In this document: in pieces, positions 13,201-57,842 of the stretch
Numbering within the stretch: the stretch's first letter is position 1
Layout: the number at the start of each line of letters is the position of its first letter
Assembly: GCA_003344405.1 (NCBI GenBank)
Contig: NOWV01000173.1
Span: forward strand, 62,001 to 126,000
Origin: Trichoplax sp. H2
Lineage: Eukaryota
DNA length: 64,000 nt
Direction of reading: 5' to 3'
Program-made: the position numbers and the translations under genes
The notes under the pieces: model-generated
The model's input: the letters and a program-made list of their open reading frames with translations, nothing else
Databases searched by the model: none
What the model was told of the DNA's origin: nothing

Positions 13201-16200
13201 AGCTTATTCTTCTTGACATCATTTAGAGAATCCTTGTTCTACATCACCAACGCCTTGTGGACTCAATGGCTTCTGCCGAATGATAGCAACTAAACCATTT
13301 TATAAGTGTCGCTGTAATTCAGGACAAGCAGGCTACAACTGCGATCGAGGTAGATCTAGATTTCAGCAATCTTTAACTAATCATTTTTAGGTCTAGCTAG
13401 CTGCTTCCAGACCTGTTAAATTAAACCTTCAATATTAGGGAATAGAACAGCTACCAAGTCAATTTTTTCTTGTCGATTTAGAATTCAATGCTTGCGATAG
13501 ACATCCATGTGCAACACAAGCTGGAGGTCGAGCAGTCTGTAAATTTGTTAATGGATTTGCTACCTGTCAATGTCCTGAAGATTATAGCGGATACAACTGT
13601 TTATTTTGTAAGTTTGCATCTTCAATTCTTCAATATTAAGGAATTTCATCTGATGCCGTCAAAAAATTCATTTAACAACCTATTGCTTTTAAAAGAAAAT
13701 ATTTAATTTGCGTTCTTTTCTCTTTATTCTAATGAAAGTAAAATGATTTCGTTATATTTCAGATTCAAGACTGATAGGGATTCGTCTGGTAGCTGGTAAT
13801 AAATATAATATAGGAACCGTAGAAATTTACAAGGGCAATAAATGGAGTAGAATTTGCTCGCAAAATTGGCAGTTCAGCCATGCACGTGTGGCATGCCGTC
13901 AGCTTGGATTTATGGATGCACAACTTCGAACCCAATGCTGCAGTAATCTGGAAGATCCATTAATATCCAAAGTCATGAGCGGGATTAACTGCACAGGGAA
14001 TGAGCCTAATCTCAATGATTGTAGCCAAAACCACGTAGAAAGTAACATTTCATCCTGCTCTAAAAGTGCAGCAATATATTGCATAGGTACACCCTTTACA
14101 TTGTAAGTTTAAAAAAGAATCCTATCAATAAAATAGTAATATTAATACTTTTTTAATAACGAACAGATAGTCCACTGGATTCCAATTTGAGCAACTTAAC
14201 TTCACTATCAGCTAGGTAAGAGCTTGGTAGAATCATTTGTTGAGTATGAAAAATTTAAATTTGCTATAGTATGGTACTCTAATACGTTTAAGAATTAATT
14301 GAACAATTTCGTGAGATTGTAAGTTAGATCATTAGCACTGATCATCATTTATGCGCCCTTCTAGCTTTCTAATACTCTTGTAATACTTTACCAAATTGCT
14401 ATAAACTTAACTTTTGTTAACTATTATGTTGGTCTCCAAATCCACGAATTTGAAATTTAGCTACAAGTGCGAATCCGGTAAGATTATACTTTCACCTACG
14501 TAGTGATAGTGTTTACTTATGATACAGCTTCATAATACTTTTTCTGTATAATATATAACAGAATAAGGGCTACTTATTTGAAAATCATTTACTAGCAAGA
14601 AGTAATTAATATCAACTGATTTGCATTTTTAGATATAAATCCTTGCTTAAGTTCACCATGCGGGCGAGTTAGTGCAACTTGTGTCAACGTACTGAAACCC
14701 TTCAGAGGATATGCCTGTCTATGCGAGAACGGATATTGGAATGGATATCAATGTGTTAACGGTAGTGTAAATTCTTCATAAACTACGTCTTTTAATTTTC
14801 AATTTGCCGTGGCTAAATGTTCTGCTCAATCATTAACCATCCACGAAGGAAGTATCCATATGATCTCTGCAACACACGTTTGATACACTTATTCACCTTT
14901 TTCATTTCAACAGATGTAGTTTTAACTACTGTTACCCTGAAAGCAAGTACAAATACAGTAGCAATTGGTCAAAGGTTATTATTAGAATGTGTTGCATACG
15001 CTATTCCATTGCCAAAAATATCATGGCTCAAAGATGGCCAAATAATAATCAATTCCTGGATTAAAGTCATAAAAAATGATACAGTATCGGTTAAAAATGG
15101 CTCCAGGTCAACCTTAGAAATTAAATCTATAACGCTCGGCGATAACGGCAATTATTCTTGCATTGCCAAAGATGAAGTCTTTGATAGGATCGTTCAGAGC
15201 AACCAAGAAGCGATAGGTCATTCTATTTTAAAATATTACAAACTTGTTGTAATTTCTATTAAATGAAAGGAAATTTTGCTTTTCCAAATGGTACCGCTAT
15301 AGTCAGTGACTATTAAACAGGTTTTCTTCAATTTCGAAATTTAGGCTTTACTTGTTCTCCCGCATACTGTTCTAATAGAGGAAATTGCACGATTACTGGT
15401 GGAAAATTTGTTTGCAGGTATACATTAATTAAACAATCCGATAGCAAAAGAGGCCTATCAATCAGATACCGTAGATTAAACAGAGTTTACAAGAAAAAAA
15501 TGTGCAATATAATCAATTTAATCGTATCTATTTTACATTCCGTTCTTTTACAGTAATTGCACCTTCGGCTATGGAGGATCCTATTGTAATACATTGCTAC
15601 CTTGTAAGTAGTGAAATAGAAGTAAAGATATTACTGCATTTCTAGTGCATGAAAGATGCCTATATCCTCGATGTGTCTATAAGCCTAACCTACTATTCTT
15701 ATTTAATATCAAAGCGCAAGTTTTATTAAAGATGAAACTTTATAATTTAGTAAAAATTTAAAATTGTAAATATATTTATTGCAGTTAATTTGTTATTTTA
15801 AAAGCATCGATATAGGCTTATATGTTTGAGGGTAGTTCTTGCTTGAATTAATAAAGTTAGCCATAGTTATTCTAGACATTAAATTTATTCATTATTTATT
15901 TTAACACATTATGCAGATGTGCCTTTAAGAAGTGCTCAACTTCAAACTAATGCAATATTGTATCGCCAATATGAATCTATCATCATACAATGCTCCATTA
16001 TTGCTTATCCCGTGCCGATTGTGCTTTGGATGAAAAATAATTCTGTGATTCGACAGGAAAATAACGTATCAATGTCTAAAATGACCAATGACAATAATTA
16101 CTACGAGTTAAAATCAACATTAATCATTCGTAGCGCTTCTATTTTGGATGCTGGTAGTTATGCATGTCATGTAAAAGATACTCATTTTAATAAAACTATA

Positions 16201-19075
16201 AAAAGCGACAGCATTAATATCGGTAAGAATGCTTTCACTTATTTTAATATTAAAATACAATATATAGAAATTATCGTAATAATCGCAGTTTAAATGAATT
16301 TCTATCATTATGGTAATAGCAGGACTGTAAATAGTATTTGCATTTACTCTCCGTAGATGTTGGCATAACCCTTGAATCCGTTCAAATTCAAGCCAATACT
16401 TCCAATTATTTCTTTGGTTTGCCACTTAGCATTGAGTGCAAAGCCAGGTCATATCCGCCATCCAACGTGACGTGGATCAAAAATAATCTTCCAGTAAAAC
16501 CGAGAAATAATTCCTATATCATCATCGCGAATGATCCTGCTAAATATTTGGCTACATCAATCCTATTAATAAATCAACTATCTACGGAAGATAATGGAAA
16601 ATACCAGTGTATTGCCAACGATACCTTTAATCATAATCTGCTGGAGACTACACCATGGATTATAAGTACTTATTTGTACAGATAAATTGATAGTCATGTT
16701 TGTTGCACAATCGATATTGTATAATTAAAATTTCAAACATCTGGTAGTGCTAACTCAAAAATTAATTGCCTTCACCTAATTAGAAGTAACATGTCCACCA
16801 AATTTCTGTCGGCATGGAGGACATTGTTCTATTAGCGGCAGTAGCCTAATATGCAGGTATTCAAATCAAGATACAATATTCTTGGAGATTATTAAAATAT
16901 TTCAAATAATTTATGGTTACAGCAATTGACACTGCAATTTAATTGATATACAGTTTACGATATGAAGAATTCATTTGCGATCGTAATCAGTCCAATCCTT
17001 TAGCTTCGATAATGATCACTATTAGACAGTGAAAATAATTTCATATTACAAATTGTCTAATATTACCCTATAAAAATAAGTAAATGTAGAAAATTCTTAA
17101 TTTAAGCTTCACATAAAAGGAATTCGTTGCAAAGAGACAACTATGTATAATAATCGCAGAAAAACAAAATTCTTTTACGTGCGAATTATTCATTATTTTA
17201 TAAACGGATTTCTGATCAGATGCTTTACTTCTATATTAAAATGCAATGAAATGATAAAATGAATTCTTAAATTTCGTATTAGCTTGCGATTAGATCATAA
17301 CGGTTAAAGTATTGTAAATTACATTATATTATCCCACGTAGCGTCACAGCATTTTTTTATCTTCAGTCAACTTTTTTATTCTATAATATATTTATATATA
17401 TAGCTGCAGCGCCGATTATACCGGAAGTTTCTGTGAAACTATTATACCAAGTAAATTTAGATTTACGAAATGGAATTATTTAAATTTGAAGACCGTTCTT
17501 TAGTATTCTGATAACAGGATTTTGAAAAGTATTTTAGTGTAGTAACTTTGTCCATTTTCATCTTTACTAAGTAATCTTAAAGCCTTTTCAGTATTTCAAG
17601 TATCCAATCTAACATCATTTTAAAATATATTGGTTTCTCTATCTCAGATATTCCTGCCAATAATGTCCGGCTTATTTCAAATTCGACCTTATTTAAAGTT
17701 GACTCTTACGTTAGTCTAAGCTGTCAAGTAATCGCCCGACCAAGACCAATATTTACCTGGATCAAAGATAATATTCCAATACGTCTAAAGAATCATACTG
17801 AAATTGATACTAAAGATTCCTCGTCGAAAAATACTTACATTTCAATACTATATTTTAATCCGCTAATGCTGGGCGATAATGGAATTTATCAATGCCTTGT
17901 TAATGATACCGTCAATAATAAGTTTATACAGAGTGCTACTATGAATATCAGTAAGATTTTATCGACTATAATGCAATATTTTATTAGCTACCAGAATTAC
18001 GTAAATATTTCAATATAATAGAACTATTAAGGATGATACTATAGTATCAAATACGAAACATTTATATCTATAGTTGAATAAATGGCAGGTTATGATAAAT
18101 TATAGCAGTTTGTAACGAATTCGATTATATTATTATTTTAGGTTTTACCTGCTCAGCTGGATATTGTAGTTATGCAGGCAAATGCAAGATATTATCATAT
18201 AATAGGCCAAGCTGCAGGTGAATTTATATATTCTTTGTCTTACGGTATTTCAGACTAACGTAAATATTTTAATCAATTTTACCAATCACAGCATTCTAGT
18301 ATTAATTAACGTCAGGATTTCTGGCTGATATTGTTTATTTTACTTCAATACTTAGTTGTAATAACGGATATGAAGGAAATCATTGTCAAAAAATATTTTC
18401 CGGACTAAGTAGTAAGCATTTACATGACATAAGTAACTTAATCATTCAATATTATAGTGCAATGCTGTGATCGACTGTCATAGTCAGATATTAACGAATT
18501 TATGTCTGAATTAACTATTGCAACATATTTTGCAACCAGCGGGAAGTTATATCGGAATAGCTACTGGCGTTATTGCAGCCTGTCTTTTAGTAGGAGTTAT
18601 CATAATTTACTTCAATAAATATCGAAAGTAAGTATAATATTAATCTGAATGGCTTACTTTTAGCTGGTGATATGCTTATCCTATCAAGTATAAGCCACTT
18701 ACAGATACAATAATTTTCCAAAAAGTAATATAAACCTTGATAATTAAGGTCATTAATGACATTATCTCCACATCTTTTAGAGGCCAAAAATTTGGATGTA
18801 CCTGGAGTTTTAGATCGCAGAACACCAGCTCAGGTAATTTAGTGAGATAGCGGCTGAACAAATTGTTACGTTTTTCAGTATAGCATTATATTGCAACTGC
18901 TTAGACTATACCTTTGATATACGAGCAGTTAGTAATTTTGTCAAAATTTCAACTTTATTCCAAATATTCGAAATTTCTCAATAGATTTTTGCATTGTTTT
19001 TTGGGTATAGGTGGATTGACTCAACTAGACCTGAAAGTATTAGTAGATAATGATCACGCTACTCTGGACGAATAA
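1225..19075 (+). CDS. Multi-exon type-I transmembrane scavenger-receptor-like protein: signal peptide, ~23 EGF, 11 SRCR, 4 Ig-like domains, TM helix and short cytoplasmic tail (~2,600-2,700 aa estimated)
   Basis: Exons assembled by hand with GT-AG sites. 1225-1260 plus 1988-2039 give [29 protein letters not shown] (signal-like). EGF exons include 2530-2643 ([23 protein letters not shown]), 3748, 3962 and 4441. SRCR exons start at ~4834, 5773, 6584, 7479, 7985, 8829, 9949, 10821 ([26 protein letters not shown]), 11519, 12650+13040 and 13763. Ig exons start at ~14914, 15917, 16357 and 17649 (LEC..P.P.ISW.K...D.G.Y.C). TM exon 18539-18627 reads [29 protein letters not shown]. Tail exons at 18781 and 19011-19075 end DNDHATLDE*. 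The start exon is less certain. Confidence 0.88.
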
Positions 19076-20731
19076 ATTGTCAATAGAAACACTTTTTTGA
19101 ACAGAGCAATATCTAAATATCTGTTGGCAAATTATTAAGCGATACTGTACTGTAGATTCAAAATTTTTATACTAGATAATCTATTTCTTATCAAATCGGA
19201 AGATACGTCCCTGAAAATGTCTAAAATTTAGTCTAAGGCCTGGCAATAAGACAATATATTTTCGCAAAATGCGCTCGTCACAATTGCTTAAAGTTAGCTT
19301 GACAATTCTAGTTATGCATAGTCCTACCTTTTAGACTACAATAAAGCAGTATATGAATCAACTGGACTATATTTAAGCTTAAAACAACTTATTCGAACTC
19401 GATTTTATGTAAACTAATGAGATTAGAATTAAGTATTTGAAAAGTTTATTGGTCTATCTCTCTCATATGTTTTAATAACCTGTTGTTCGATTGTTTCTCT
19501 TATTTTATTTGATGTTAAAGTTTCGCTAAGTTGACTAGAGTGCAACGAAAGATGAATTAAAATTATTAAAATTTAGTAGCTTGATCCCTACATTTCACAT
19601 TTCGTTACATTATTATTAAGTAGATAGTTTATTCCTCTTCTTTTTCAATTATTTGGAATTTTGTACGCTAACAGCTTCAAGTCAATAGGAAAAATGATCC
19701 TTATAAATTAGCATTTCAATGCATAGCATATATCAAGTGAAGATGTAAGATTTGATAAGTACGGTCGATATCATGCATACAAAAGTCTGACTAGTTTAAA
19801 TACGCTAATAACTTTTTTTATCTATCTCTTAATTTTTCAATGATAAGCAAGTTGACTCAATATGTTGAAATACAATATTCTTATTTCGATTTCATAGCTA
19901 AATCTCAGTTTCACAATTCGTATGAACTTTTCTATTAGGTAATAAGGTTGAAGCATTTCATGGAGGGTTAAAAATTTAGAATAAACTGAGTACAATAATA
20001 ACTATATAAGCGAAATTTTTGGAAAAAAACTAACAACAACGCAAGCAATATGAGCGGAGATTTAGAATAAATTAAGCACAATAAAGATTAATTACCCTAC
20101 TGATCACATGTATAATGGGAACTAATTAGAACTATTAACCAATTAGGCCTCTAGTAAATCAAAGGGTATCCATGATCTTCAGATTAAGTTATTGCACTAT
20201 TTGTAAGGCCAGGAAAATAATTAGGATTATAAATGATTCGTGACAAGATTACACAATACGTTTATTTACATTATTGCCAGTGCCAGATGAAAATATTTAC
20301 AGTAGATTGGATGGATTCTAAATTTTGCACCCACAGTCTTATAAGAATGCTTTATCTTACAAATTGTAATTAGAACATGAGCAAACATCACTTAGTTCCT
20401 ACCCCAAGTCCATTCAAAGTTTAATTTCTGTTACACTGTATCAAACAAATCTTGTTTAATTTCATTTCTTGAATTGTTTATAGAGTGTTCAACAATCAAT
20501 GCAAAGTTCTAAAGGTTGTTGTTGCTAGTATTTTATATGCAGTTAGTTGGTTAGTTAGTTAAGGAGTTAAATGTAGTCGATAGAAATAGAATTTCTGTGT
20601 CATATTCGTTAAGGGAGTAAAGAAACAGCATAGCAAGAATATTTCTGGATAGAATTGAACAAAATTGAATTGTTTAAAGATCATAGTTCTCAACATTAAT
20701 TACACTCCTATTCGTTGTAAGCATAACCAAT

Positions 20732-21038
20732 ATGGAAGATGGTAAAGAGATTGATGAAACAGTTGAAGTTAATTATAAACGAATCTTGCATGAACTTCAA
20801 ATCGAAGAAATTATGTTTGACTAGAGAGCAAATCAAGTCTTGTCAGATTCGCAAGTCCAAAATTTGAGGAACTCAAATAAAGATAAAGAGAGAATATATG
20901 AATTTATCAGCTTCCTGAAATAGAAAAAGAAAGCGGACCTTTATAATTTTTGTCAGGCTTTAATCCCTCATGAAGAATTCTCTATAAGTGAATTGGTTGA
21001 AGACTTGAAAATTCAAGCTGATGAAGCCTTTCAAAAGG
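20732..21038 (+). pseudogene. CARD (death-fold) domain exon with two in-frame TAG stops
   Basis: MEDGKEIDETVEVNYKRILHELQIEEIMFD*RANQVLSDSQVQNLRNSNKDKERIYEFISFLK*KKKADLYNFCQALIPHEEFSISELVEDLK matches the CARD helical pattern (N...L...L.v..ild.L....vL...e...I.....r...lld.L..k....f..F..aL). Stops are at 20822 and 20921; a GT donor follows at 21039. Confidence 0.7.
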
Positions 21039-21789
21039 GTATCAATCAATTATATACAATATGTGATTAGTTGTGGAAGACTTTGCTTTTATTACGAAAG
21101 CCACATATTATAGTATTCTAAAGAGCGAATTTGCTTAAAAAATATAAGTTACTAGATAAAGTATTGATGCAGTTTTGGTTGGCAGTAATATACTGTAGAG
21201 ACTTGATACTACATCATTTATGTTTATCACAAGTATTTTGTTAGTGCATTGTGAACATTTATTTTAGTCGTGTTAAGTAGGTTATTAATGGAGACGGTAC
21301 GTGTAAATGATAAAACTAGCATATTGAGTATTATAATTATTATTGTTTCTTTCAGGTGACTACGGTTAACACATTAGCTGTAAATAAGGATTCATTAGAA
21401 TTCCTTGAATTGATTGGTTTTGTAATCTAACACTGTTAACTAACTCGTTTATCTATTTGACTTATACTAATTTCTGTTTTGAAGCCTCATAGTAAGCCTA
21501 TGAGGAAAGTAACGAATATTTGCTTTCATTAATAGTGTGCATGAAGGTTGTAGTGCCACAACTATAAAAGGACATGGCAGATTACTGCAATTTTAATCTT
21601 ATTTTGTTTAATTTCATTAATCAACAACCCTAATAAACTATAGTATTTTTTTATCCCTTCGGAGTGATCTCGCTGTGAGACCGTCAAGCACCCTGATCCC
21701 AACCAACTGACCGTTGAAGAAGGCAGTTGTTTACGGTAGAATTGGGCAAATTCTACGTATACTAAAGTTGCATTATGCTTACTTGAATA

Positions 21790-22936
21790 TACTACTTAGC
21801 TAAGTTTCCATACTTTCAAGTTACTTTATTCTAAATTTCGTAAGGGTCTAATAAAGGAAAAGCCAAATATTTTGTTTATAGCAGAAGTAAATACGGCTTC
21901 TCTAGTAGCATCCCAATATCCGAAAAGCCGGCAATCAGTAATACTTGAAAAATCGCAATATTCAGCCGCAAAAGAAACATCGTCAGGATTGACAGACAGC
22001 TGAAATTCATCCTCTTATGATGAATATTTAAGTTTTTAATTTTTAACATTTACCCGTAATATACCATGTAGATTTGAACTAAATCTCAGCTTCTGGCCAG
22101 AAGTCACAAAGATGCGATTGTTAACTTGCCTGAAGAACCTGAATTACCACCATTTGCAATGGATGAATACTGGCCCAGTCGATAGTTTCTCATAAGGATC
22201 AACAACAATATTTGCTTCTATGATCGATGCCACTTGAACATACGCAGAACATTCAAGTTTCCCGATCGTTCTTGTGGTGTACGGCATTTTAAGTTCAATG
22301 CTATCAATCATTTATTCTATGTGCAAACGATTTGAAAACGGGTCAAAATATTATTTTATTAACAGTGCACAGGGAAAGCTAATTTTGATTTTGTTTCATA
22401 CTACTTTGCAATTCTTTTTATTAGTTTTGGTTATAATGAATTTTACTGCGTACATTCTTTTATTACATAAATATTTCTATAGTTTCTTTCAGAAAAAATT
22501 CTGTTTCTTAGTGAAATATTATGATTTATCTATTTAAAACGTAAAATTTATTCCTCTTTCAAGTGAATGGATCAGTAATTTGTAGTGCCGTAGGTAATAA
22601 AAACTTGATAGAATTTCTACCAATTTTGAATATATGCTCTTTCAAATTAGATCTAGTATTTTGACATTACGAGTTTGCTTAAATATGTAAATTAAGTAAC
22701 ACTACTGCCCTTCATTTAAATGTTAATAGCATGTAGCTTGGCGTTCTTCCGAAATTAATTATCAGCAAGTTCATGAATTTTCAGAACCATCATTGGGGGT
22801 TGATTTTTAATTTTACTAGATATACTTAAAGAATATATCTGACCTTCAGTATCATGGGCTAATTTATCTTCATCAATTTTAAAGGAGTATTATTTTTCCA
22901 TCTAAAATTTCTTTTGCTGTCCTTTTCATTGTTCAT
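21790..22936 (-). pseudogene. Decayed intronless ORF, N-terminal part weakly protein-kinase-like
   Basis: Long coding-like frames broken by sparse stops and frameshifts: KIDEDKLAHDTEGQIYSL..MMVLKIH; KLVEILSSFYYLRHYKLLIHSLERGIN; MIDSIELKMPYTTRTIGKLEC...EDEFQLSVNPDDVSFAAEYCDFSSITDCRLFGYWDATREAVF. Confidence 0.3.
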
Positions 22937-22954
22937 CTCAAATAAAGTAAAGAA

Positions 22955-23175
22955 GCAATTTACCATGTAACATGGTTTAATTAATTTGCGTTTAATGTCT
23001 TAATTACGTTGCGATTTCTAATTAGGCTTTTCTATGTAAAGGTTTAATTATAAATGATATTATTGAAACAATTACCATGGAGCCTGGCTTAATTGATCTG
23101 TATTTAATACTTTAATTATGTTGCGATTTCTAGCTCGTCTTTAATATGTAAAGGTATAATTACAAATGATATTAC
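22955..23175. repeat. Diverged ~112-bp tandem duplication just upstream of the transposase
   Basis: Two copies of caatt(t)accatg...taatta(c/t)gttgcgatttcta...tatgtaaaggt(t/a)taatta(t/c)aaatgatatta. Confidence 0.8.
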
Positions 23176-23387
23176 CTTAACTAAACCAGCTTTAGACAGC
23201 CATAATACTATCCTATAATATTTACCATAATTAGCACGATAATAAATCATTAAGCGAAATATTCGTCAATGCTAGCATTTAGTCACTGAGTGCATAAGAG
23301 TAAGATTGACAGAAAATTTAGTCTACCTTTACGGCTATTAAGTGAAAGATTGGAAATCATTCAAAATCGGCGATTTGAACCAAAAAA

Positions 23388-26316
23388 ATGGAGAATTATA
23401 ACTCTAGTGGTAGTGAATTGATCGAGGAAAAGCAGGATGATCCATCCACAACCGCAGTGGATGAGTCCGCTGATGAAATGGAGATTCCACCATTAGAAGA
23501 GGTAAGCGATAACGAAAATGCTGATTTAAAAACATCGATAGACTTATCGAAACAGCCATTAGAAGATACATATCAGTGGCAGGAAAGCAAGCCAGAAAAA
23601 ACTTACACGCATCCATTCGTGGGTAAACCAGGTATCAATGTTGATACTACTAATTTTAAGCCGATCGATTACTATCAACTCTTTCTTACACCAGAATTAC
23701 TACAACATATCGTATTAGAAACTAATAGTTATGCTTCAGCATTTCTGCAAAGTAGCTCTAGCTTAGAGTGCCATCGAAAGCAATGGTCACCAACTAATGC
23801 TAGGGAAATTAAGAAATTGCTTGGAATCATTTTTCTAATGGGGTTAATTCATATGCCAAACATTGGACACTACTGGTCTACTGATTACTTGTTTAGAATG
23901 GAGATATTTCGTTCCATTATGCCTCGTGGTCGTTATATACTGTTACAGAAATTTTTCCATTTAAATAATAACGACAAGATGCCCGACGTAAAGGGTCCTA
24001 ATCGCGATGCTCTGTATAAACTTCGTCCTCTAATAGACTATTTAATGTGTCGTTTTCAACAAGTCTATACAGTAGAACAAAACGTTGCCGTTGACGAATC
24101 ACTATTACTATGGAAAGGAAAGTTACATTTTCGCCAATTTATACCCTTAAAACGCGCAAGATTTGGTATTAAAATGTTTTGCCTGTGCGAGAGCAAGACA
24201 GGATATACCTTTCGCTTTCGAGTCTACACTGGTCAAGATGATCCAACAACAGGAATGGACTTGGAGTTACCACCCGAAGTTCGTGATGCCGGTAAAGCAG
24301 AAAAAGTAGTTGTCTATTTGTCCTTACCATTACTGGATCAAGGTTATAACATCTACATGGATAATTGGTATAGTTCAGTTCCTCTCTATTCCTATCTTTA
24401 CGAACGAAGAACGAATGCTTGTGGCACAGTAAGAGCAGATAGAGTACCGGCTAGTATTCGAGAGAAAGATGTTGCCTTTGGCAAGAGTAGCACATTTTGG
24501 CTAGGGCCTTTAATGTGTGTTAAATTTAATGATCGAAGCATGGTTTATATGTTAAGCACACTGGATAATGATGGAATTACTCAAGTGACAGTGAGTGGAG
24601 GCCAAGGAGTTCGAGGAAAAGTGAACAAGGGAAAGCCTACATGTGTCGTTCACTATAATAAGTTTATGGGAGGAGTAGATTTACGAGATTCTGTAAGCCA
24701 ACTAAATTTTGTATCGAACCATTAAGCCATTAATTAAGGCACCTTTAGTCCTGTCCATTTTATATGCTATTTTTTATTAATAGAGGCTAGGCACTAAAGC
24801 ACATAGAAACAGTATACTGAATTATAAATTCTATTTATTTTTTGTAACCATTGGATAGTAAATTGAATCAGCATGAATTAGCGGTAGATTGAATAGCTTT
24901 CAATTTTACCTCCAGGTCATTAAAAACTATGCTGCTACCAGGAAAACAATAAAGTGGTATAAAAAATTAGCGATCCATCTTTTGCAGATTGCACTGCATA
25001 ATGCATTTATACTCTATCGTAAAGACCATCCTCAAAGTAAAATGGGATTTATGGGCTTTACAACGGAGGTATAGAAAGGTCATTGGATTGCTACTTATTC
25101 CTTAATGAACTATGACGCTAATTTAAATACCTTTCATCATAACTTGGATGATATTTTCCTAGGTTATATCAGAGTTATTATCTGTAGATAAAACTACAGA
25201 TGTATCCAAAAGGTTAGCAAGTGTATGTGAAGAAAGTCAAAGGTTAACAGACACTCATAATGTGGGAAACATGGAGCATGAGAGTAAGGACGAGATCACT
25301 CATACTCTCACTAATCTGGGATCTCAAGCAAGCAAAATGGTAGGTTAGCTTGATCAGCGAAAGATCGTATCTGTGCTCGTATGTCATGAATATTTTTCAC
25401 CTTCTAGTTGGATACGCCATCAGTAACAACTTTGTAGGAGTATTTTAAGTTGATCAGCGAGAAATAGTTCTTTGACACATGAGTATTTTTCGCTTTAACT
25501 TTGGATTAGATTGATCACTAGAAACTATATCGGTACTCATATGTCATGAGTACTTTTTAGCGTTGAATTTGGATGAGACTAATCAATAACAACCTATTCT
25601 GATACTGATATGTCATGAGTATTTTCCGCCATAGATTGAAATTACATCGATCAAGGAGAAACTGTGTTGTTAATAACCCGTCATGAATAGTTTCCGCCTT
25701 TGATTGCATGAAGAAAGCAGTTTTACCAAATATCATTACAGTGGCATTGTAGAAGCACTATCAGCAATGTTTAAATTTCATGACAAGATGTTGACAATAT
25801 TACTATTTCAGAATAAATAATTACAACACTGTACTGAACAACAAAGTCAAATCTTTACAGTATCTCAAGTAGATTAAATTTGTAATACCCTAATAAATCA
25901 CTGCAATTTCATAATTTTAAAAGCAACCAAAAAGGTTTACCCAGTTGCATTGGTACTCATGATTTCTACAGTCTTGTTCTTTCAAAGATTGGAATGGTTA
26001 CTCTAGAATGGTAACGCGTAGCTAACTTTAAAACACTTGTACTTGTATTAAGGCTATGAAAAATGGACAATTAGTGGATAGAATGAATGCAAAATCCAAG
26101 TTACCTACAACATGTCTTACAGAAATGCATTTTCCACAAAAGCTCAAATCGAGAGGCCATCAGAAAGATTCTAGGCTTCGCTGTAGCATGTGCTACCATA
26201 AAGGTCGAAGAAGAATGGTCACTACAACTTGCAAAACGTGTCCTAATCGACCTGGCCTTTGCATTGATCCTTGCTTCGAGGAATATCATCTTCAATTAAT
26301 GAATTGGAAACGCTAA
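23388..26316 (+). CDS. piggyBac-family (PGBD4-like) DDD transposase, 4 exons, 632 aa
   Basis: Exons 23388-24692, 24916-25068, 25163-25339 and 26053-26316, joined by phase-0 GT-AG introns with the frame intact. Catalytic motifs VAVDESLL, IYMDNWYSS and YNKFMGGVDLRD; also KRARFGIK and RKTIKWYKKL. C-terminal cysteine-rich domain RCSMC...CKTCPNRPGLCIDPCFEEYH. Acidic N-terminus. Confidence 0.92.
25350..25710. repeat. Degenerate ~65-70-bp minisatellite (about 5 copies) in transposase intron 3
   Basis: Recurring gatca...(gt)catga(g/a)tattttt-cgc-ttgga core near 25383, 25477, 25543, 25612 and 25680. Confidence 0.65.
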
Positions 26317-26984
26317 TGCATCTACTCCTTACGATATCTTCTCTTAACATGCTGGTACAGCACCAACTAATTCAATTGACGATGATTTGAACATTCTAGA
26401 CTTTACCTTTATTATCCTCTGTCACTTTACTTAAATAACAATCAAAATACGTTTAGCCATAGTATTTCTGAAATTGGACATACGGTATAACACTTTGACG
26501 GCGCATCTATACTATTAGTCTTTTCAAAACGTCTACGCCTATCAGAAGTTGCATTCATCCTTGGAGGAATTTAGACATGGTTGTATATGATATATCTTGA
26601 ATTTCCGTCAATGATTACAATTTACATGGGTGATCAATGCTTTCTACTATTAATTTAACAATCTAGTATAATAAAAACCAAGTGAAAAATTTAAAAAAGT
26701 ATTGAACTCTACTGAGTAGTATGCTTATTCAAGGCGAGTAAGTTCGTTTCAAACAATATTTACAATTTTGTTTTAGACCTTCTGTAAGTGGAGATTTTGA
26801 GAATATGATTGCTTGGGAACTGTGAAATATGGTGCAGAGTTTACAACTTCTAAATTGCCTTACCAATCTGTCTTTAAGTATGAACTATATAGTCGAATAT
26901 ACTCACAATGACTAAATTATTCGCCCATTAAAAAGTACGTGGATGCTTATTTGCGTTTATTCACCTCGTCATACTTATAATTAT

Positions 26985-29900
26985 AATCAATCAATTTATA
27001 ACTTGTAGTACTAAGTATGCGAGTAGGGGTATTTGATTAAGCAACACGCTCAATTCATAACTTGTAGAATCGAGAATACGAATAGATATAACTGATTAAG
27101 CTACTCGCTCAATTCATAACTTTTAGAATCGGGTGTACAAATATGTTTAACTGATTATACTACTCGCTCAATTCATAATTTGTGGAATCAAGTATACAAG
27201 TAAATATAACTAATTAAGTTAATCTACTTGCTCAATCCTTAACTTGTAACATCGAATAGGTATAACTGATTAAGTTAAAAGCTCAATTTATAACTTGCAG
27301 CATCGAGAATACAAGTAGATATAACTGATTAAGCTACTCGCTCAATTCATAACTTGTAGAATCGGGTGTACAAATATGTTTAACTGATTANNNNNNNNNN
27401 NNNNNNNNNNTTCTAAATTGCCTTACCAATCTGTCTTTAAGTATAAACTATATAGTCGAATATACTCACAATGACTAAATTATTCGCCCATTAAAAAGGA
27501 CGTGAATGCTTAATTGCGTTTATTCACCTCGTCATACTTATAATTATAATCAATCAATTGATAACTTGTAGTATTAAGTATGCGAGTAGGGGTATTTGAT
27601 TAAGCAACACGCTCAATTCATAACTTGTAGAATCGAGAATACGAATAGATATAACTGATTAAGCTACTCGCTCAATTCATAGCTTGTAGAATCGAGTGTA
27701 CAAGTGGGTTTAACTGATTAAGCTACTCGCTCAATTCATAACTTGTAGAATCGAGTGTACAAGTGGGTTTAACTGTTTATGCTACTCGCTCAATTCATAA
27801 TTTGTGGAATCGAGTATACGAGTAAATATATATAACTAATCAAGTTAAGCTACTGGCTCAATTCTTAACTTGTAGCATCGAATAGGTATAACTGATTAAC
27901 TTAAGCTACTGGCTCAATTCATAACTTGTATCATCGAGAATACAAGTAGATATAACTGATTAAGCTACTCGCTCAATTCATAACTTGTAGCATCGAGAAT
28001 ACTAGTAGATATAACTGATTAAGCTACTCGCTCAATTNNNNNNNNNNNNNNNNNNNNATTCATAATTTGTGGAATCGAGTATACAAGTAAAAATAACTAA
28101 TTAAGTTAATCTACTCGCTCAATTCTTAACTTGTAACATCGAATAGGTATAACTGATTAACTTAAGCTACTGGCTCAATTCATAACTTGTATCATCGAGA
28201 ATGCAAGTAGATATAACTGATTAAGCTACTCGCTCAATTCATAACTTGTAGAATCGAGTGTACAGGTGGGTTTAACTGATTATGCTACTCGCTCAATTCA
28301 TAATTTGTGGAATCGAGTGTACAAGTAGGTTTAACTGATTAAGCTACTCGCTCAATTTCGAGTGTACAAGTGGGTTTAACTGTTTATGCTACTCGCTCAA
28401 TTCATAATTTGTGGAATCGAGTATACGAGTAAATATATATAACTAATCAAGTTAAGCTACTCGCTCAATTCTTAATTTGTAGCATCGAATAGGTATAACT
28501 GATTAACTTAAGCTACTGGCTCAATCCATAACTTGTATCATCGAAAATACAAGTAGATATAACTGATTAAGCTACTCGCTCAATTCATAACTTGTAGCAT
28601 CGAGAATACAAGTAGATATAACTGATTATGCTACTCGCTCAATTCATAACTTGTAGAATCGAGTGTACAAATATGTTTAACTGATTATACTACTCGCTCA
28701 ATTCATAACTTGTGGAATCGAGTATACAAGTAAAAATAACTAATTAAGCTACTCGCTCAATTCATGACTTGTAGAATCGAGTGTACAAATATGTTTAACT
28801 GTTTAACTGATTATACTACTCGCTCAATTCATAACTTGTAGCATCGAGAATACTAGTAGATATAACTGATTAAGCTACTCGCTCAATTCATGACTTGTAG
28901 AATCGAGTGTACAAATATGTTTAACTGATTATACTACTCGCTCAATTCATAATTTGTGGAATCGAGTATACAAGTAAATATAACTAATTAAGTTAATCTA
29001 CTCGCTCAATTCTTAACTTGTAACATCGAATAGGTATAACTGATTAAGTTAAAAGCTCAATTTATAACTTGTAGCATCGAGAATACAAGTAGATATAACT
29101 GATTAAGCTACTCGCTCAATTCATAACTTGTAGAATCGGGTGTACAAATATGTTTAACTGATTATGCTACTCGCTCAATTCATAATTTGTGGAATCAAGT
29201 ATACAAGTAAATATAACTAATTAAGTTAAGCTACTCGCTCAATTCTTAACTTGTAACATCGAATAGGTATATCTGATTAAGTTAAAAGCTCAATTTATAA
29301 CTTGTAGCATCGAGAATATAAGTAGATATAACTGATTAAGCTACTCGCTCAATTCATAACTTGTAGCATCGAGAATGCAAGTAGATATAACTGATTAAGC
29401 TACTCGCTCAATTCATAACTTGTAGCATCGAGAATACAAGTAGAAATAACTGATTAAGCTACTGGCTCAATTTATAACTTGTAGCATCGAGAATACAAGT
29501 AGATATAACTGATTAAGCTACTCGCTCAATTCATAACTAGTAGAATCGAGTGTACAAATGTGTTTAACTGATTATACTACTCGCTCAATTCATAATTTGT
29601 GGAATCGAGTATACAAGTAAATATAACTAATTAAGTTAAGCTACTCGCTCAATTCTTAACTTGTAACATCGAATAGGTATATCTGATTAAGTTAAAAGCT
29701 CAATTCATAACTTGGTAGCATCGAGAATACAAGTAGGTAGAATACGTTATTACGGCTATACTATTGAAATGCAGTAAATCCTAAATAAAAGAGACTTTTA
29801 GTAAGCTAACTAGGAGGAGTATATCAAGGTCTCTCGTGCTAACATTAACGACTAAGAGTGGAAACACAAGGGATATAACTGATTAAGTTAAGTTACTCGT

Positions 29901-30010
29901 TCAATGCGTAGCATCGAGTAGGTAGAACTAATTCAGTTACTCGCTCATTGCATAACTTACCGCATCAAGTAAGTCTAACTGATTAAGCGACTTGCTCAAT
30001 TTATAACTTT
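26985..30010. repeat. ~59-bp tandem satellite (~45 monomers) with a ~4-monomer higher-order repeat; contains two N gaps
   Basis: Monomer GCTACTCGCTCAATTCATAACTTGTAGAATCGAGTGTACAAGTGGGTTTAACTGATTAA. Variants recur in fixed order. The homogeneous array ends at ~29740; degenerate copies lie at 29870-30010. Confidence 0.95.
27391..27410. other. Assembly gap (20 N); a second gap is at 28038-28057
   Basis: Runs of n in the sequence. Confidence 0.99.
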
Positions 30011-33470: not shown

Positions 33471-36400
33471 TTAGTCTTCTTCTTCTTCAATCACTTCTTC
33501 ATCCACCTCTTCTCCGTCGTCTTCATCAGCGCTACCTGCGTAAACCCCAGTAGTCTTTTGTGATTGGACATTCAAGTTGCGAGGCAAAGGAATGTCTAAC
33601 GCTTTGTGAATGGATTCTATAGTTTTCATATTAACGTAGTACAGAATGTTCATAGATGGTATCTTCTTTCGTAACTCTTCTAGTGATTCATGAGCCTAAA
33701 TAGAAAATAGAAATTCAATCTATATTAGTCAACAATTCTTAAGACGTGATGATGAAAGTATAAGTTCGTGAACTAGACTACATTTTCAAACCTTGGAATA
33801 ATTTTCTTGCTGAACATAATGAGAAATTATAGTTCCATAAATGTCGCCAATGCGAACGGCAGAATCGATATCCGGTTCGTCAATAAGTGCTTGACAGGCA
33901 TTGACAGCATCATTGGGCTCATTTTCCATTTGCCTAATTATGATATAAATTAGAAAGTAAGTATAGTATCAATTGGGTGGTTATCATCGTATCATCGTAT
34001 ATATATATTTGTTATATACTGCAATAAAGATAGGTACGATTAAGAGATTGGTTTTAACGGTGTCGATATGATAATAAAAAATTACTTTTTAGCTTGTATA
34101 AATTTCTTAATTAATGTTGCACGCTGCTTTAAGGAAACCAATTTATCTTCCTGTTGCTGAGGATTTTTAACTTTTGCTTTACTGAGACATTTGTAAGCCT
34201 CAGTAAGAGCTCCAAAAGCTTTTTGATAATTTTGATATTCATCAATCTCCACCTGACAAATCAAGATCATTAGTATTTGAGAAATCATTTATACAAAAGT
34301 GAATCGTTAAAAGTTGTTAAAATACTACTTGCTAATAATACTGCATGCTATTGACAAAAATATTTTAACGACATAGACTATCAGTACATATTTCGATTAT
34401 CATAGATAGACTAACCTGAGCACAAGCTACATAAAATCCGGATAGTAAATCCAATGCTCGACCTTTTGTGTAAAAGGTTATAATATTTTTCATTACGTCC
34501 GAATCCTTTCGCCAATCCAGCGACTGCAGATAATTTGCAGCCATAATATATATTTCTCGTTGTCTGGATACGCCAGCAAAGAAAATAATTTTTTCTGTGT
34601 CTCCTGATTTAAGAAGTGATTTCATCGCCTTGATTTTATTGCTAGCTTGGGTAAACTTTTTGGTCGCAAGATGATACGACCCTTGTTGCATTGCGCATTC
34701 TGCAATTTTTTCCAATAATTGATTTCGATATTCATTATCAGCGGATTCTGTCACATATGATAGAAACATAAATGATTAAATTTTACTTAAATCCATTTAG
34801 AACTAGTGTATAAATAATGTTAACGGCCTATTAAGTACTATCTATTGCTACGTGATTCATAGTCGAATTTACTTCTTCACTACATACGAGTATAAGACAC
34901 CGATATTAATTACTAGAAATTGTTTATTTGTTTAATTCACCTTTTGAGATAGTCATTTTATCCGCTACTTCTTCGGTAATGATTATATTATGTTCCATAC
35001 ATAATTCTAGAGCCTCATAATACTATCAAAACAATGGATAAAGGATTATGGAATCTGCATTACTTCATGAAAATGTAAAGAAACGCTTCTATCATATCTG
35101 AGTAGCGTTGAATCTAGCTAGATTTTAGGAAACCGTGATAACCAACCTTTTTAGCTAAAACAAGTAAATCAATTGCTTTTTCATTTCTACCATGTTCAAT
35201 GAGATATGTTGAGCACTGATTGAGAATAGCTGGGTCAGTGTTTTCATCTAAACTTTCAGCAATTGTCTCCAAGGTGGAAAATTGCTTTGCTTGAAAGCAT
35301 AGATCCAAGGCTTTTGCAACTTCTCCTCCCTAAATATTATATTAAAGAATTGTTAAACTCACTAAAGCCCAAACCATAGCTTTCTCGTTCTTTACATTTA
35401 GTTTCCATTAATGTAGTTGACTGTTTCTATGAATTACAAGCATAAATTGCACATTTTATACTATCATTCTATCAATACCTTATAATACAACACTATAGCC
35501 TTATCTAAGGTGTCTTGCTTTGATTCGTAGAATCTGTAATAATTTAGCATATTTAACAGCAAAATTAAATTAATTTGTTATTTGAAAAAATATTAAGACT
35601 AAATGATGATATTAAGAGAAAGAAGAGATAAAATACAGCTCAGTATATCATACAAAACTAATAACCACGTAAAACATCTTCATTTAACTTACGTTGCTAC
35701 ATCTACCATGTCACGACTGGAGCTTAGTAATGCAAGATTCATTAAATCGCCTTCCATTTCATTTTCCTACGGTGATTAAAATCAAGACAAACAGGAATTG
35801 ATTTGTTTAGCTGATATTTGCATTTATATATTGGAGAATTTGTTAATTGTTGCTATAAATGGTATTGCTAAAATAATAAATATTAGCATCTTTGCCTTAG
35901 CTAAGCGAATGGCATTGCTATAGCTTTGAGCTCGGGTATAGAAATGAATAGCTTCACGTATTTTTCCCTAATTAAATAAGACATGGATGTGAAAAATAGT
36001 TATTAAGATGTAACTTTACTAGAAATTCCAGCTGCTGTAACTGTAAGTACGAATATGTCATTATAGACTAACTTCATTTTCGTGTTGTCTCGCAAGATGA
36101 TATGAGGCAGCCAAATCTCCTGTAGTATTAGCAATTTCTGCGGCCTGATTTATGTAATTCAGTATAAAAATAAGAATATTTGGAAGGGTATCATACACCA
36201 ATTGACACGTAAATCTATAGTAAGTGAAATAAATTGAACACACTTATCAATTTATACTATAAAAAGACCTTATCAATGTCGCCAGAGTAGCAATAAATGC
36301 GAACGAGGGATAAAGAATCATGAGCTGATTCATAAAATCGTATTGCCTCTTCCAATTCACCTTTTCCTTCCATGTATTGAGCCCACCATTTCTTTAGTTG

Positions 36401-39400
36401 TCTGTTTTAAATTATCAAATCATTGCTATTACTGACGATTACATTAAACATTCTCACGATATTACTATAACACGTACGGATCCTGTGATTTCAGAACATA
36501 ATTTCTTAATCTTTCTAAATCATCTAGTAATAATCTAGGTACGTCAAACAGCTGAGTCCCTGCTTTTTCATATCTAGTTTAGAAATTGTGAAAAAAACAC
36601 GTATAAAATTGGAAGACTAATTCATATTTATACAGTGTATGTCGAATATGCAAATATTCTAATATGTTGCAAGTAATACGGTCAAAAGTTAAATGGAACA
36701 CATATAACATATTCTGGACATTCACACATAACACTAACTCGCTAATAGCTGTTGATATTTGTCCCATAGCCTCCAATTGTTTAGCAAAGTTGTAATGAGT
36801 TGTTCTTAGATGGATGCGATCGAACCTTTCAGCCACATCAATTGCCTATTGACAGTGTTCATAAAAGATTAAGAATTAATTTTAATCTTAAGCCAACTGT
36901 TAACAACAAAGTTTATCGGCAGAATATCATACCTTCTTCCACTGTCCGCTAGCTTGATAGAAGTTATTAAGTAAATCAAATCTATTGCATTCTTTGTATA
37001 ACTTTTCAGCTTCATCCTATTACAAAAATATTCGCTGCTTTAGGGATATCAGCAAAATGGGGAAAATAGCGACCACGGTACTGTAAGACTATACAGATGT
37101 AAATTAGTATTTAGTATTTTGTAATTTACCAGTTGGCCTAGCTGAATTGCCAATGTAGCAAGTTGGCATTCAATTTCTGGTTCTTTTTTGGCTTCTCGTA
37201 GTGCTCGCGAACCTCTTGCATGCCCCATATTACCAAGACATACAGAAGCAACATCCAGTCGACGTGTTTTTATGCACATACGAGCTAGATTTTCCCAAAC
37301 AGTCTCGCTAAGAAATACGATTCAAATCAGGATTAAAGTGGCCCATGATTCATTGACTGTACTATGTAGAAATATAATCAGAAATAAATACCTTTTAATG
37401 GCCTTGATCGCTTTGAAAGCTTCATCCATATTTCCAGTTGTTAAGTTAAAACTAAAGTTCATCATGGCTTTCATAGTGGTTTCATCACTATCTTCAAGAC
37501 CTATGAAATCTCTCATTACTACTCTTCCGACATAGGGAAAAGTTTTTGCATTGTCTTCACTATCACTTTTTCTGGATGGGTGGACATCGTCAATTTCAGA
37601 TAGCTAGATTAGATAATGAAATCATGTAGAATTTGTAATAATAACTTAATAAAGTTGTGATGTTTAGGAAAAACTTAGCTAGTTTTGCTACCATAACTTC
37701 TGTACTTCGCAAAGTTTTACATACCTTCTTTAGAAAGAAATAAAAAGGCGACCCAATTCCCAGTAAGCCTTACACAACAAATAAATACATCAGCTAAAGT
37801 TTAACTGTTAAAGGTTATATTAAATCTGATCAGAGCCATTTTTTGTTAGTTATTCAAAAAAATAGCCTCATCGCATTTAAAAATTTCTAGATCGTGACAA
37901 TCACAAAGATATTAAATCCATCTATCGATTCTAACTTAATGCATTATAGTATAGATAGGAATTCATCAACTAATTTTAACAGCATAAGTATAGCCCAAGA
38001 ATTTGACTTTCTGTTATTATTAGAGTAAAATCATAGCATTAAAGTTTACGTATTATTTTTATTTGCCTCTAATTTAAATATCGATCTATACCATTACAGA
38101 TAGAAAATCATAATTTTAAATTTTAGTAGCAGTAATACATTTAAATCTATAATAAAGTGCAAGTTCGAAGTATTAGGGCATTAATTCTTTCAACAAGTAG
38201 AATTTTATCTGATGTCTTAAACTGTTCTCTTTAGGAGCTGTAGTTGACTGGGTTACATTATAAACTAATATAGAGCTTACTTTGAAAGCTGGTTTCCACA
38301 TTTGACGATTCTTGAAGCACAACGCCGTTCTCAGGCGTGCTAAATAAGGTGGCAATCTTAGTTGTCTAGAAATTGTAACCAATAGTAATAATTTTAGTTC
38401 AACCTGTTATTCTGAGCTAAAGCAGTAAATGCATTAAAAAGTAAGTCAAGCAGCTGATGAAATTGTACTCTAAATAAATCTTAATAATAAAATAAATGAA
38501 TGTAATGACCGACTTAAAAGTGTACCTTGTTAGAAGTCTTGTTATTATCGCTAGCTTGATCATTTTTAGACTTTCGATATAATGACGCATTATGATCATG
38601 ATTTATATAACTTGGAATTAACTCACAAGCTAATAATTTCACTTCTTTAGAATCCCAATAATGATTGACAGGTATACAGCGTTGAATCTCAGGTTCTTTA
38701 TTGGCATTATTCTTACGATTTTTACTACGATGATCAGTACTTTCCCATTTGCAAAAGTCAAAGCCCTGTATACTGTCTACTTCAGTTTCCCAAACATAAA
38801 GGACTGGCGATGGGTCTCCATTCGTCTAATAATAGACAATGATATACTTTACTTAAGATATAGAATCAGATCATAAAATCGATATTCGATAAGACATTTC
38901 GTGACACTTTATATCGTGAAATCAATGCCATAAAACCAGTAAGATTTTATGTAATTGCTCAGAAATGTCATTTATAACAGAATTACGCGAATTAATTCCA
39001 TGTATATTCATGCTACGCAAATAAGTAATTTAGACATCTATGTAGCTGCACTGTTTGCTTCTTTAATTACTGACAAGGCAAATATTGAATTTCATTTTAC
39101 ATACATTATTCATACTTATACAATTATAGAAGATCACGTATTGTAAATTTTCTTACCTGACGAGTTATAAAGCTAACTTTGCTTCCGCTGCAATTGCAAC
39201 GAATTGAGGTAATCTGACTGAACTTGGGTATAGATTCTGCGACAAATTTGGGGTTACAATGTTGCCTAGCCTCTCTATATAACATAAAATCGCATCATAA
39301 GCAGCAGCAAAACTAGTTTTACAGTAAATGAAATAAAAGTCGCTGTTTGTATATTACCTCCTTGATAAATCAAAGACTTTAATATATCCTGCACTACTTG

Positions 39401-57000: not shown

Positions 57001-57842
57001 GTTGCCTCTCAAGTTAACGAAATAAACCACAAATTATTTCGCGACGTAACAGAACGGTCAAATCTAAATACATTACGTACGCAAAACAACATCGAACAAA
57101 CCAAAGATAGAAGAAAGCATAGAGTTCCTAAACATACGCACAACATTATACTTCCTATTACAACAGACGAAATGCCTATAGAATAGAGAATACTCGTATC
57201 GAGACTTGATTATAGAATATAATGTCAAATTCTAGAATCACTACCCAACAATTGTGTGGCCAAACAGAATTTGCAAACATTATTTAGCTTCATCAAATAC
57301 TAAAGTCACGGTAAAATAATCTTATACAGTTATACATCACAATTTACACTTTGTATGTCATTTTACTCTTGAGGGATTACCATCCATATACATCAAAGTT
57401 GCTGCAATGATAACTAGAACGATAAATGCTTTTAATCGTTGCACTACTAATAATGCGATCAATCATTCAAACGTAAGAAAATTGGTCTGGACTAAGGAAA
57501 TGTTTTAAGTATTAAGTACAAATACACCCATCCTCGTCCTTTGAATACCACATTTCATGGTACCATTTATATATTAAATACTTGTTATTTGTACGTAATA
57601 TTAGAAATTGCCGCATAGGACCTGTCTTATACACCTATTTAAAGCCTTAATTAATAATGAATGCAAGTTATTACGTAGCTATTCTACAGTATTTATTAAT
57701 ATTTGTCAATGGCTGTTACTGTGATTTGTAGCAAGTTTTAGCTAATCATTTTTTATTATTAATGATGGAGCTTATTAATAAATGTTCATAAATCTGATAA
57801 CTGTTAATTCTATCTTACATATAGAGTATACGGAATTTGCTG

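Follow-up and report, generated by a model that had tools for sequence, protein, structure and literature searches.

Ciliate PiggyMac and TPB2, Xenopus Kobuta, and primate PGBD4 are piggyBac-derived genes that lack transposon ends and carry an intact triad of catalytic aspartates (DDD) and a cysteine-rich domain. Their orthology across species and Ka/Ks ratios of 0.12-0.43 were established from many sequences, and some of them have a shown function (consulted sections of Bouallegue et al. 2017, PMC5381638). The same sections reserve the status 'domesticated' for genes with an orthologous single copy across species and a Ka/Ks ratio showing selection, and apply the term 'PGBD-like' to transposases with no terminal inverted repeat (TIR) or one TIR, whose status is undecided. 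This study analyzed a predicted piggyBac gene of Trichoplax sp. H2, which occupies positions 23388-26316 on the plus strand of a 64,000-nt stretch of contig NOWV01000173.1 (called the window here; all coordinates refer to it) and comprises 4 exons with a 632-aa product.

The Trichoplax gene is likewise without detectable ends and has an intact DDD triad and cysteine-rich domain; PGM and TPB2 have introns (PMC5381638, consulted sections), and the Trichoplax gene has predicted introns and appears to be single copy. In contrast to the many sequences available for the described domesticates, the comparison for Trichoplax draws on 6 substitutions among two or three lineages that are nearly identical. 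The 'PGBD-like' definition fits the gene exactly on present evidence. Many PGBD-like copies in the consulted sections are truncated or degenerate, whereas the Trichoplax gene is whole, with 632 codons and no stop. We give about even chances that it is a stationary, host-maintained, single-copy piggyBac-derived transposase gene of this PGBD-like kind; its standing as a domestication candidate is reasonable but unproven. No publication naming a placozoan piggyBac domestication was found, and the supplementary transposon-ORF (open reading frame) tables that accompany the consulted texts of PMC2871265 and PMC6057997 may include the locus.

Among transposons, the comparable systems are the PGBD4/Uribo-like piggyBac elements of Polypterus senegalus, Hydra vulgaris, and Ptychodera flava, which have the domain order, the DDD triad, and the zinc finger in common with the Trichoplax gene. 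The Trichoplax gene differs in being a cluster singleton and in carrying an extra linker; it has no detectable inverted ends and three predicted introns.

Gene model and encoded protein

The translation of exon 1 (23388-24692) was 100% identical to a public protein of 632 aa, here P0001, whose source record supplies the name 'PiggyBac transposable element-derived protein 4 [Trichoplax sp. H2]'. The gene model is therefore already present in the public annotation. Because PGBD4 is limited to primates (PMC5381638, consulted sections), orthology of the Trichoplax gene with human PGBD4 is unlikely. Alignment of P0001 with the window by tblastn returned four blocks, each 100% identical, and the joined coding sequence comprised 1896 nt and 632 codons with zero internal stops. 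The three predicted introns (223, 94, and 713 nt) all follow the GT..AG rule and all lie in phase 0. The 632-aa frame across three phase-0 introns, which an earlier reading of the sequence alone had described, was thus recovered exactly. The parts of the gene are as follows:

23388-24692, plus strand: exon 1, aa 1-435; acidic N-terminus and most of the transposase core (D236, D325, D431, D434); tblastn 100% over aa 1-436
24693-24915, plus strand: predicted intron 1, 223 nt, GTAAGC...CCTCCAG, phase 0, 31% GC; a stop follows 10 codons into the read-through
24916-25068, plus strand: exon 2, aa 436-486; end of the core with the RKTxKWYKKL helix; tblastn 100%
25069-25162, plus strand: predicted intron 2, 94 nt, GTATAG...TTTTCCTAG, phase 0
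25163-25339, plus strand: exon 3, aa 487-545; VISELL start as in relatives, then a lineage-specific low-confidence linker; tblastn 100%
25340-26052, plus strand: predicted intron 3, 713 nt, GTAGGT...GTATTAAG, phase 0; tandem repeats of ~68 nt at 25478-25625
26053-26316, plus strand: exon 4, aa 546-632 and the TAA stop (coding part 26053-26313); LTEMHFP motif and cysteine-rich zinc-finger domain; tblastn 100%

The encoded protein is a piggyBac superfamily transposase, as its core, three aspartates, cysteine-rich C-terminus, and fold all fit. The Pfam domain DDE_Tnp_1_7 (PF13843) was detected in exon 1 at 8.9e-77 (259 bits, cut-off 22.4; profile positions 2-319 of 349), and the profile resumed in exon 2 at positions 317-349. 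Exon 2 also matched relatives by tblastn, with E values of 4e-12 to 8e-14. In an alignment of 14 piggyBac proteins (P0001 and 13 relatives), D236, D325, and D431, together with D434, occupied invariant columns, and the aspartates of the motifs AVDES, YMDNW, and GGVDLRD aligned with the DE, DN, and GVDxxD motifs of piggyBat (9c0f) and Trichoplusia ni piggyBac (6x67). The catalytic aspartates of T. ni piggyBac aligned here are presumably D268, D346, and D447. In exon 4, zf-Tnp_2 (PF13842) was matched at 2.9e-7 (31.4 bits, cut-off 24), and six cysteines and one histidine (C589, C592, C605, C608, C615, C619, and H624) were invariant in the same alignment. Both the D-D-D triad and the C-terminal cysteine-rich domain, read as intact from the sequence alone, were therefore borne out. 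P0001 agrees with its 13 relatives at 78 of their 85 invariant columns; among the 7 losses, several are conservative changes (R to K, Y to F, F to L).

The solved structures nearest by sequence were piggyBat 9c0f (1.2e-53) and piggyBac 6x67 (2.8e-34). An AlphaFold2 (AF2) model had a mean predicted local distance difference test score (pLDDT) of 68.9 and a predicted TM score of 0.67; the pLDDT was mostly 80-96 over residues 70-495 and lower than 50 at residues 1-60 and 507-584. Foldseek matched the model first to 9c0f_C (2.0e-27, TM by target 0.76), then to 6x67_C (3.9e-25), and then to Tn5.

Between the core and the zinc finger, the protein carries an extra segment of ~60-70 aa (~aa 497-565, as read from the alignment), which spans the remainder of exon 3 and the beginning of exon 4 and is missing in 13 of 13 relatives. 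This disordered linker may be a lineage-specific addition. The linker motif of the relatives (RLTERHFP) seemingly occurs twice, as a degenerate RLTDTHNV in exon 3 (25229-25262) and as a good LTEMHFP in exon 4 (26116-26136); these motifs and one weak tblastn match (E 0.53) hint at a possible internal duplication behind the segment. A search of intron 3 for a leftover second zinc-finger domain found none.

The locus in a second Trichoplax lineage

Among the public sequencing runs listed, 20 of 24 contain part or all of 20500-26900, and in 11 half or more of its sampled words are present (6 studies, two organism labels). Contigs were compared for four runs, namely X2 (DNA, second organism label), X16 and X18 (guessed to be RNA), and X19 (recorded as RNA). 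Runs X12-X15 had shares of 0.36-0.50, which may reflect low coverage, a divergence of ~2%, or partial absence, and were given no weight. Run X2 covered 30 of 30 bins; X16, X18, and X19 covered 17/30, 17/30, and 11/30, and the uncovered parts carry no conclusion.

The X2 contigs at 22230-24467, 24469-25674, and 25774-26900 (2236, 1206, and 1312 nt) follow one another along the gene and reach both of its flanks in the window. Their depths were 33.4, 34.2, and 29.5; flank contigs had 24.4-26.5, and a repeat close by had 73-150. An empty-site joint skipping the gene was found in none of the four runs compared, and a second copy of the gene was found nowhere in the 64-kb window. The same flanks, the flank-like depth, and the lack of a skipping joint fit one copy at the same place in the second lineage. 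One X2 contig matches ~20 nt at each of two places, 22461-22481 and 25008-26, which are separated in it by 8 other letters; it was not listed as a joint and was taken as a chance match. At 25645-25803 in intron 3, two equal-length X2 contigs (depths 17.7 and 21.6) were present; one matched the window exactly and the other had 7 differences in 159 nt, as if this repeat-rich intron had two alleles.

Six coding differences separated X2 from the window, comprising 2 non-synonymous (T74M and S493F) and 4 synonymous changes. The resulting pN/pS was 0.14 over 1479.8 N and 416.2 S sites (one-sided binomial P=0.024, from 6 differences that are partly polymorphism). Insertions or deletions numbered 0 in the coding sequence and 3 in 2772 non-coding bases. 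Together with the lack of ends and the same flanks in the second lineage, these counts favor the proposal of the sequence-only reading that the gene is a domestication candidate; the divergence of only ~0.3-0.6% between the lineages compared and the lack of junction-spanning RNA count against it.

Several points weigh against a host-maintained gene. The substitution density of coding sequence (6/1899) was not significantly different from that of non-coding sequence (16/2772; Fisher P=0.28). The selection test uses 6 differences, some of them polymorphic within a label (synonymous position 25330 differs between X2 and X18), and two contigs each carry one further, unlisted difference. Because the lineages are only ~0.3-0.6% apart, an unselected ORF could survive for so long, and this divergence is too small to tell selection from youth with confidence. 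The comparison is shallow also in that the mean dS between the two sequenced Trichoplax lineages is 0.024 (Kamm et al. 2018, PMC6057997, consulted sections). On copy number, which the sequence-only reading had proposed to check, the flank-like depth in X2 and the one copy in the window agree with a single-copy gene, but contig depth is no measure of whole-genome copies, and the copy search covered the window only.

The relatives add a further point of this kind. Searches with the 435-aa exon-1 query gave 245 near-length matches, of which the best 120 were considered, and 66 matches among shorter proteins, which were searched separately. The nearest proteins among the best 120 of the 245 were 45-51% identical over the core, and none of these 120 exceeded 51% over the query; local identity in the shorter proteins reached at most 61% over ~23% of the query. 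No annotated orthologue from T. adhaerens or another placozoan was therefore found, in a database whose coverage of placozoan proteomes is uncertain. Lastly, no spliced joint or contig was found for any of the 3 junctions in the four runs, and four contigs of X16 and X18 were unspliced across exon-intron borders, three of them crossing one border and one spanning intron 2 whole:

24327-24766 (X18): crosses the border of exon 1 and intron 1 unspliced
25043-25262 (X16): contains the entire intron 2 unspliced
25183-25388 (X18): crosses the border of exon 3 and intron 3 unspliced
25899-26076 (X18): crosses the border of intron 3 and exon 4 unspliced

The foremost alternative explanation is an unselected relic, that is, the last undecayed copy of an extinct piggyBac family, young since the loss of its ends, with no host function and with annotated introns that are irrelevant or unused. 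We consider this possible, if somewhat unlikely. The small divergence, the similar substitution densities, the absence of an orthologue above 51%, and the absence of spliced RNA in the four runs are what such a relic would show. The consulted sections of Wang et al. 2010 (PMC2871265) report the transposons of T. adhaerens as inactive and mostly fragmentary, including 16 piggyBac pieces and no active element; a whole-ORF search such as theirs would miss a gene split by introns. However, the excess of synonymous over non-synonymous changes and the restriction of indels to non-coding sequence speak against an unselected copy. The composition of the gene is also fully host-like, the GC content at third codon positions (GC3) being 0.31-0.35 in its exons and 0.26-0.35 in host exons. 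The intron ends resemble splice sites well past the bare GT..AG, and the spacing typical of the family is restored exactly when the introns are removed.

The conservation of P0001 on a long branch also argues against a relic. In a quick maximum-likelihood tree of 34 rows picked from the best 120 of the 245 matches, P0001 fell in a 9-row clade (SH-aLRT 98) with sequences from Polypterus, Hydra, and Ptychodera, and outside the Xenopus Uribo clade. The phylogenetic placement that the sequence-only reading had suggested was thereby obtained for the near relatives, with PGBD5, PGM, and TPB2 outside the tree. The end branch of P0001 was the longest of its clade (0.95 vs 0.18-0.59), and despite this length the invariant residues of the family were largely retained, as described above. 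Relatives often belonged to multi-member clusters (e.g., 35, 39, and 46 members), many of them on short contigs like transposon copies; the cluster of P0001 had 1 member among the matches listed.

Splicing and transposon ends

A maintained gene of 632 codons presupposes that the three introns are real, which we infer from their borders. Removal of the predicted introns restores the PF13843 profile (2-319, then 317-349), and the D434-R444 spacing across the junction of exons 1 and 2 equals the invariant spacing of the family in the 14-protein alignment. Good splice signals were present (GTAAGC...TTTTACCTCCAG and ...TTTTCCTAG), and intron 3 had a weak 3' site. No repeats of the intron sequences were found elsewhere in the window, and depth was flat over the introns. 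The introns had been called spliceosomal from the sequence alone; the GT..AG ends, the phase 0, and the exactness to the codon agree with this description, but it was not confirmed, as splicing itself was seen in none of the four runs.

These observations bear on a second alternative, which overlaps with the relic explanation and which we judge to be unlikely. The gene may be mis-modelled, with 'introns' that are interruptions bridged by the annotation pipeline and a product of at most 445 aa, read from exon 1 and 10 further codons, without the core end and the zinc finger. The four contigs listed above are colinear with the genome across the intron borders, as this explanation predicts, and intron 3 combines its weak 3' site with tandem repeats. 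The consulted sections of PMC6057997 state that the H2 annotation was built with MAKER from mixed evidence, so that the public gene model need not rest on transcripts. However, X16 and X18, which were only guessed to be RNA, cover intergenic DNA at equal depth and therefore probably carry genomic DNA. The three gaps are moreover codon-exact, the Pfam profile and the D434-R444 spacing are restored across them, two of them bear good splice signals, and they are neither repeated elsewhere in the window nor uneven in depth.

In the recorded RNA run X19, the gene was represented by a single 216-nt contig (24432-24647) inside exon 1. Upstream of the gene, a 1267-nt X19 contig covers the intergenic positions 21670-22923 at a depth of 15.5 with 25 mismatches and 8 gaps relative to the window; it could be an unannotated transcript or carried-over DNA of a lineage ~2% diverged.

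An autonomous piggyBac-like element is characterized by a TTAA duplication around TIRs of 12-19 bp, and TTAA-flanked TIRs of this kind were not found at the locus. TTAACCC has zero occurrences on the plus strand of the window; all 6 matches of the TTAACCC type in the window read GGGTTAA on the plus strand, with 5.1 expected by chance. The window therefore holds no TTAA-CCC...GGG-TTAA pair, and in this respect the sequence-only reading was confirmed. Every TTAA within 8 kb upstream was compared with every TTAA within 8 kb downstream over a 16-letter match (13,298 pairs), with non-complemented pairs as the control. The best TTAA-anchored inverted pair within ~8 kb scored 12/16, equal to the best of the control. 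Pairs of at least 10/16 numbered 131 in reverse complement and 46 in the control, and the excess of 10-11/16 pairs is due to a repeated satellite arm. A blastn-short comparison of 4.4 kb upstream with 7.7 kb downstream gave 26 matches, all with E >1. Among the 25 longest inverted pairs, a check that the sequence-only reading had also proposed, none resembled element ends. Two weak AT-rich inverted pairs, I7 and I10, lie on either side of the gene at 10-11 kb; they did not surpass the remaining pairs of the list, one arm adjoins IFT140, and both pairs were rejected.

A still-mobile autonomous piggyBac-like element, with ends that are atypical or lie past the searched region, is highly improbable: the DDD triad and zinc finger are intact and other target sites and variable ends are known in some piggyBac-like elements (PMC5381638, consulted sections), but the flanks share no inverted similarity, the depth is flank-like with the same flanks in the second lineage, no empty-site joint occurs in the four runs, and surveys, in the sections consulted, report no active Trichoplax elements (PMC2871265, PMC6057997).

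Genomic surroundings and biological meaning

The gene sits in a ~15.7-kb gap between two host genes:

~3000-18000, plus strand: SRCR/EGF/Ig receptor gene, multi-exon; SRCR and EGF exons alternate, and four Ig-domain exons come after them
33789-42547, minus strand: IFT140 (intraflagellar transport), many short exons, the last exons ~3.8 kb beyond the satellite

The SRCR/EGF/Ig gene resembles a receptor-like scavenger or adhesion protein. Among 63 flanking ORFs of 40-74 aa, 61 had no Pfam match, 2 matched IFT140, and 0 contained a transposon domain. The neighboring ORFs had been taken for decayed in the sequence-only reading; this view was not upheld, as the neighbors are ordinary host genes. 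Farther downstream, a flavin amine oxidase ORF (57825-59306, plus strand) extends over 494 aa without interruption (Pfam Amino_oxidase, 1e-70) and is intronless, which is unusual here.

The gap also contains repeats. A satellite with a 59-bp unit occupies 26970-29990 (~3 kb, ~46 copies, higher-order period 233 bp), beginning ~650 bp past the piggyBac stop; TTAA occurs in most units (GATTAAGC), and the satellite contains two 20-N assembly gaps (27391-27410 and 28038-28057). Upstream of the gene, a 112-nt sequence is present in two copies at 22952-23174. The 112-nt repeat and the satellite were considered as former sub-terminal repeats of an element and dismissed, there being no inverted or direct similarity between them. 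A ~567-bp stretch at 21190-21756 had a depth 2-5x that of its flanks in DNA run X2, and contigs of three runs end at both of its borders; the raised depth and the contig ends identify it as a dispersed repeat. It was also present in RNA run X19 at a depth of 10-39 and had no Pfam or Rfam match. As a piggyBac-type miniature element it was rejected, since its borders carry neither TTAA nor C-rich inverted ends and the window holds no second copy. An Rfam scan over 18-34 kb returned no match.

If the gene is maintained by the host, its history may have been as follows. A piggyBac-like element would have inserted between the receptor gene and IFT140 and lost its TIRs, so that it was no longer self-mobile while the transposase gene stayed whole. 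Purifying selection would then keep the transposase as a host gene. The protein, if translated, may still be able to bind TTAA-flanked DNA in trans and to cut it, like domesticates that retain the DDD triad. A function in host DNA rearrangement is pure inference. In our estimation, it is very doubtful that Placozoa independently tamed a still-competent piggyBac transposase that serves the host as a nuclease on its own TTAA-bearing DNA (programmed rearrangement or the handling of repeat arrays such as the 59-bp satellite, for example), as a non-bilaterian counterpart of PiggyMac or PGBD5.

Hosts have domesticated piggyBac transposases time and again, in ciliates, in vertebrates, and in Xenopus. 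If the Trichoplax gene is maintained and catalytically intact, this domestication would extend to Placozoa, whose genomes are among the earliest-branching and most transposon-poor of animals, and a maintained gene would offer a simple animal for asking to what use a host puts such a nuclease. If the gene is instead a relic, it would stand as the best-preserved copy of piggyBac in a genome that reportedly lacks active elements. Either way, the locus provides a natural, diverged enzyme of the piggyBac family, the activity of which is testable.

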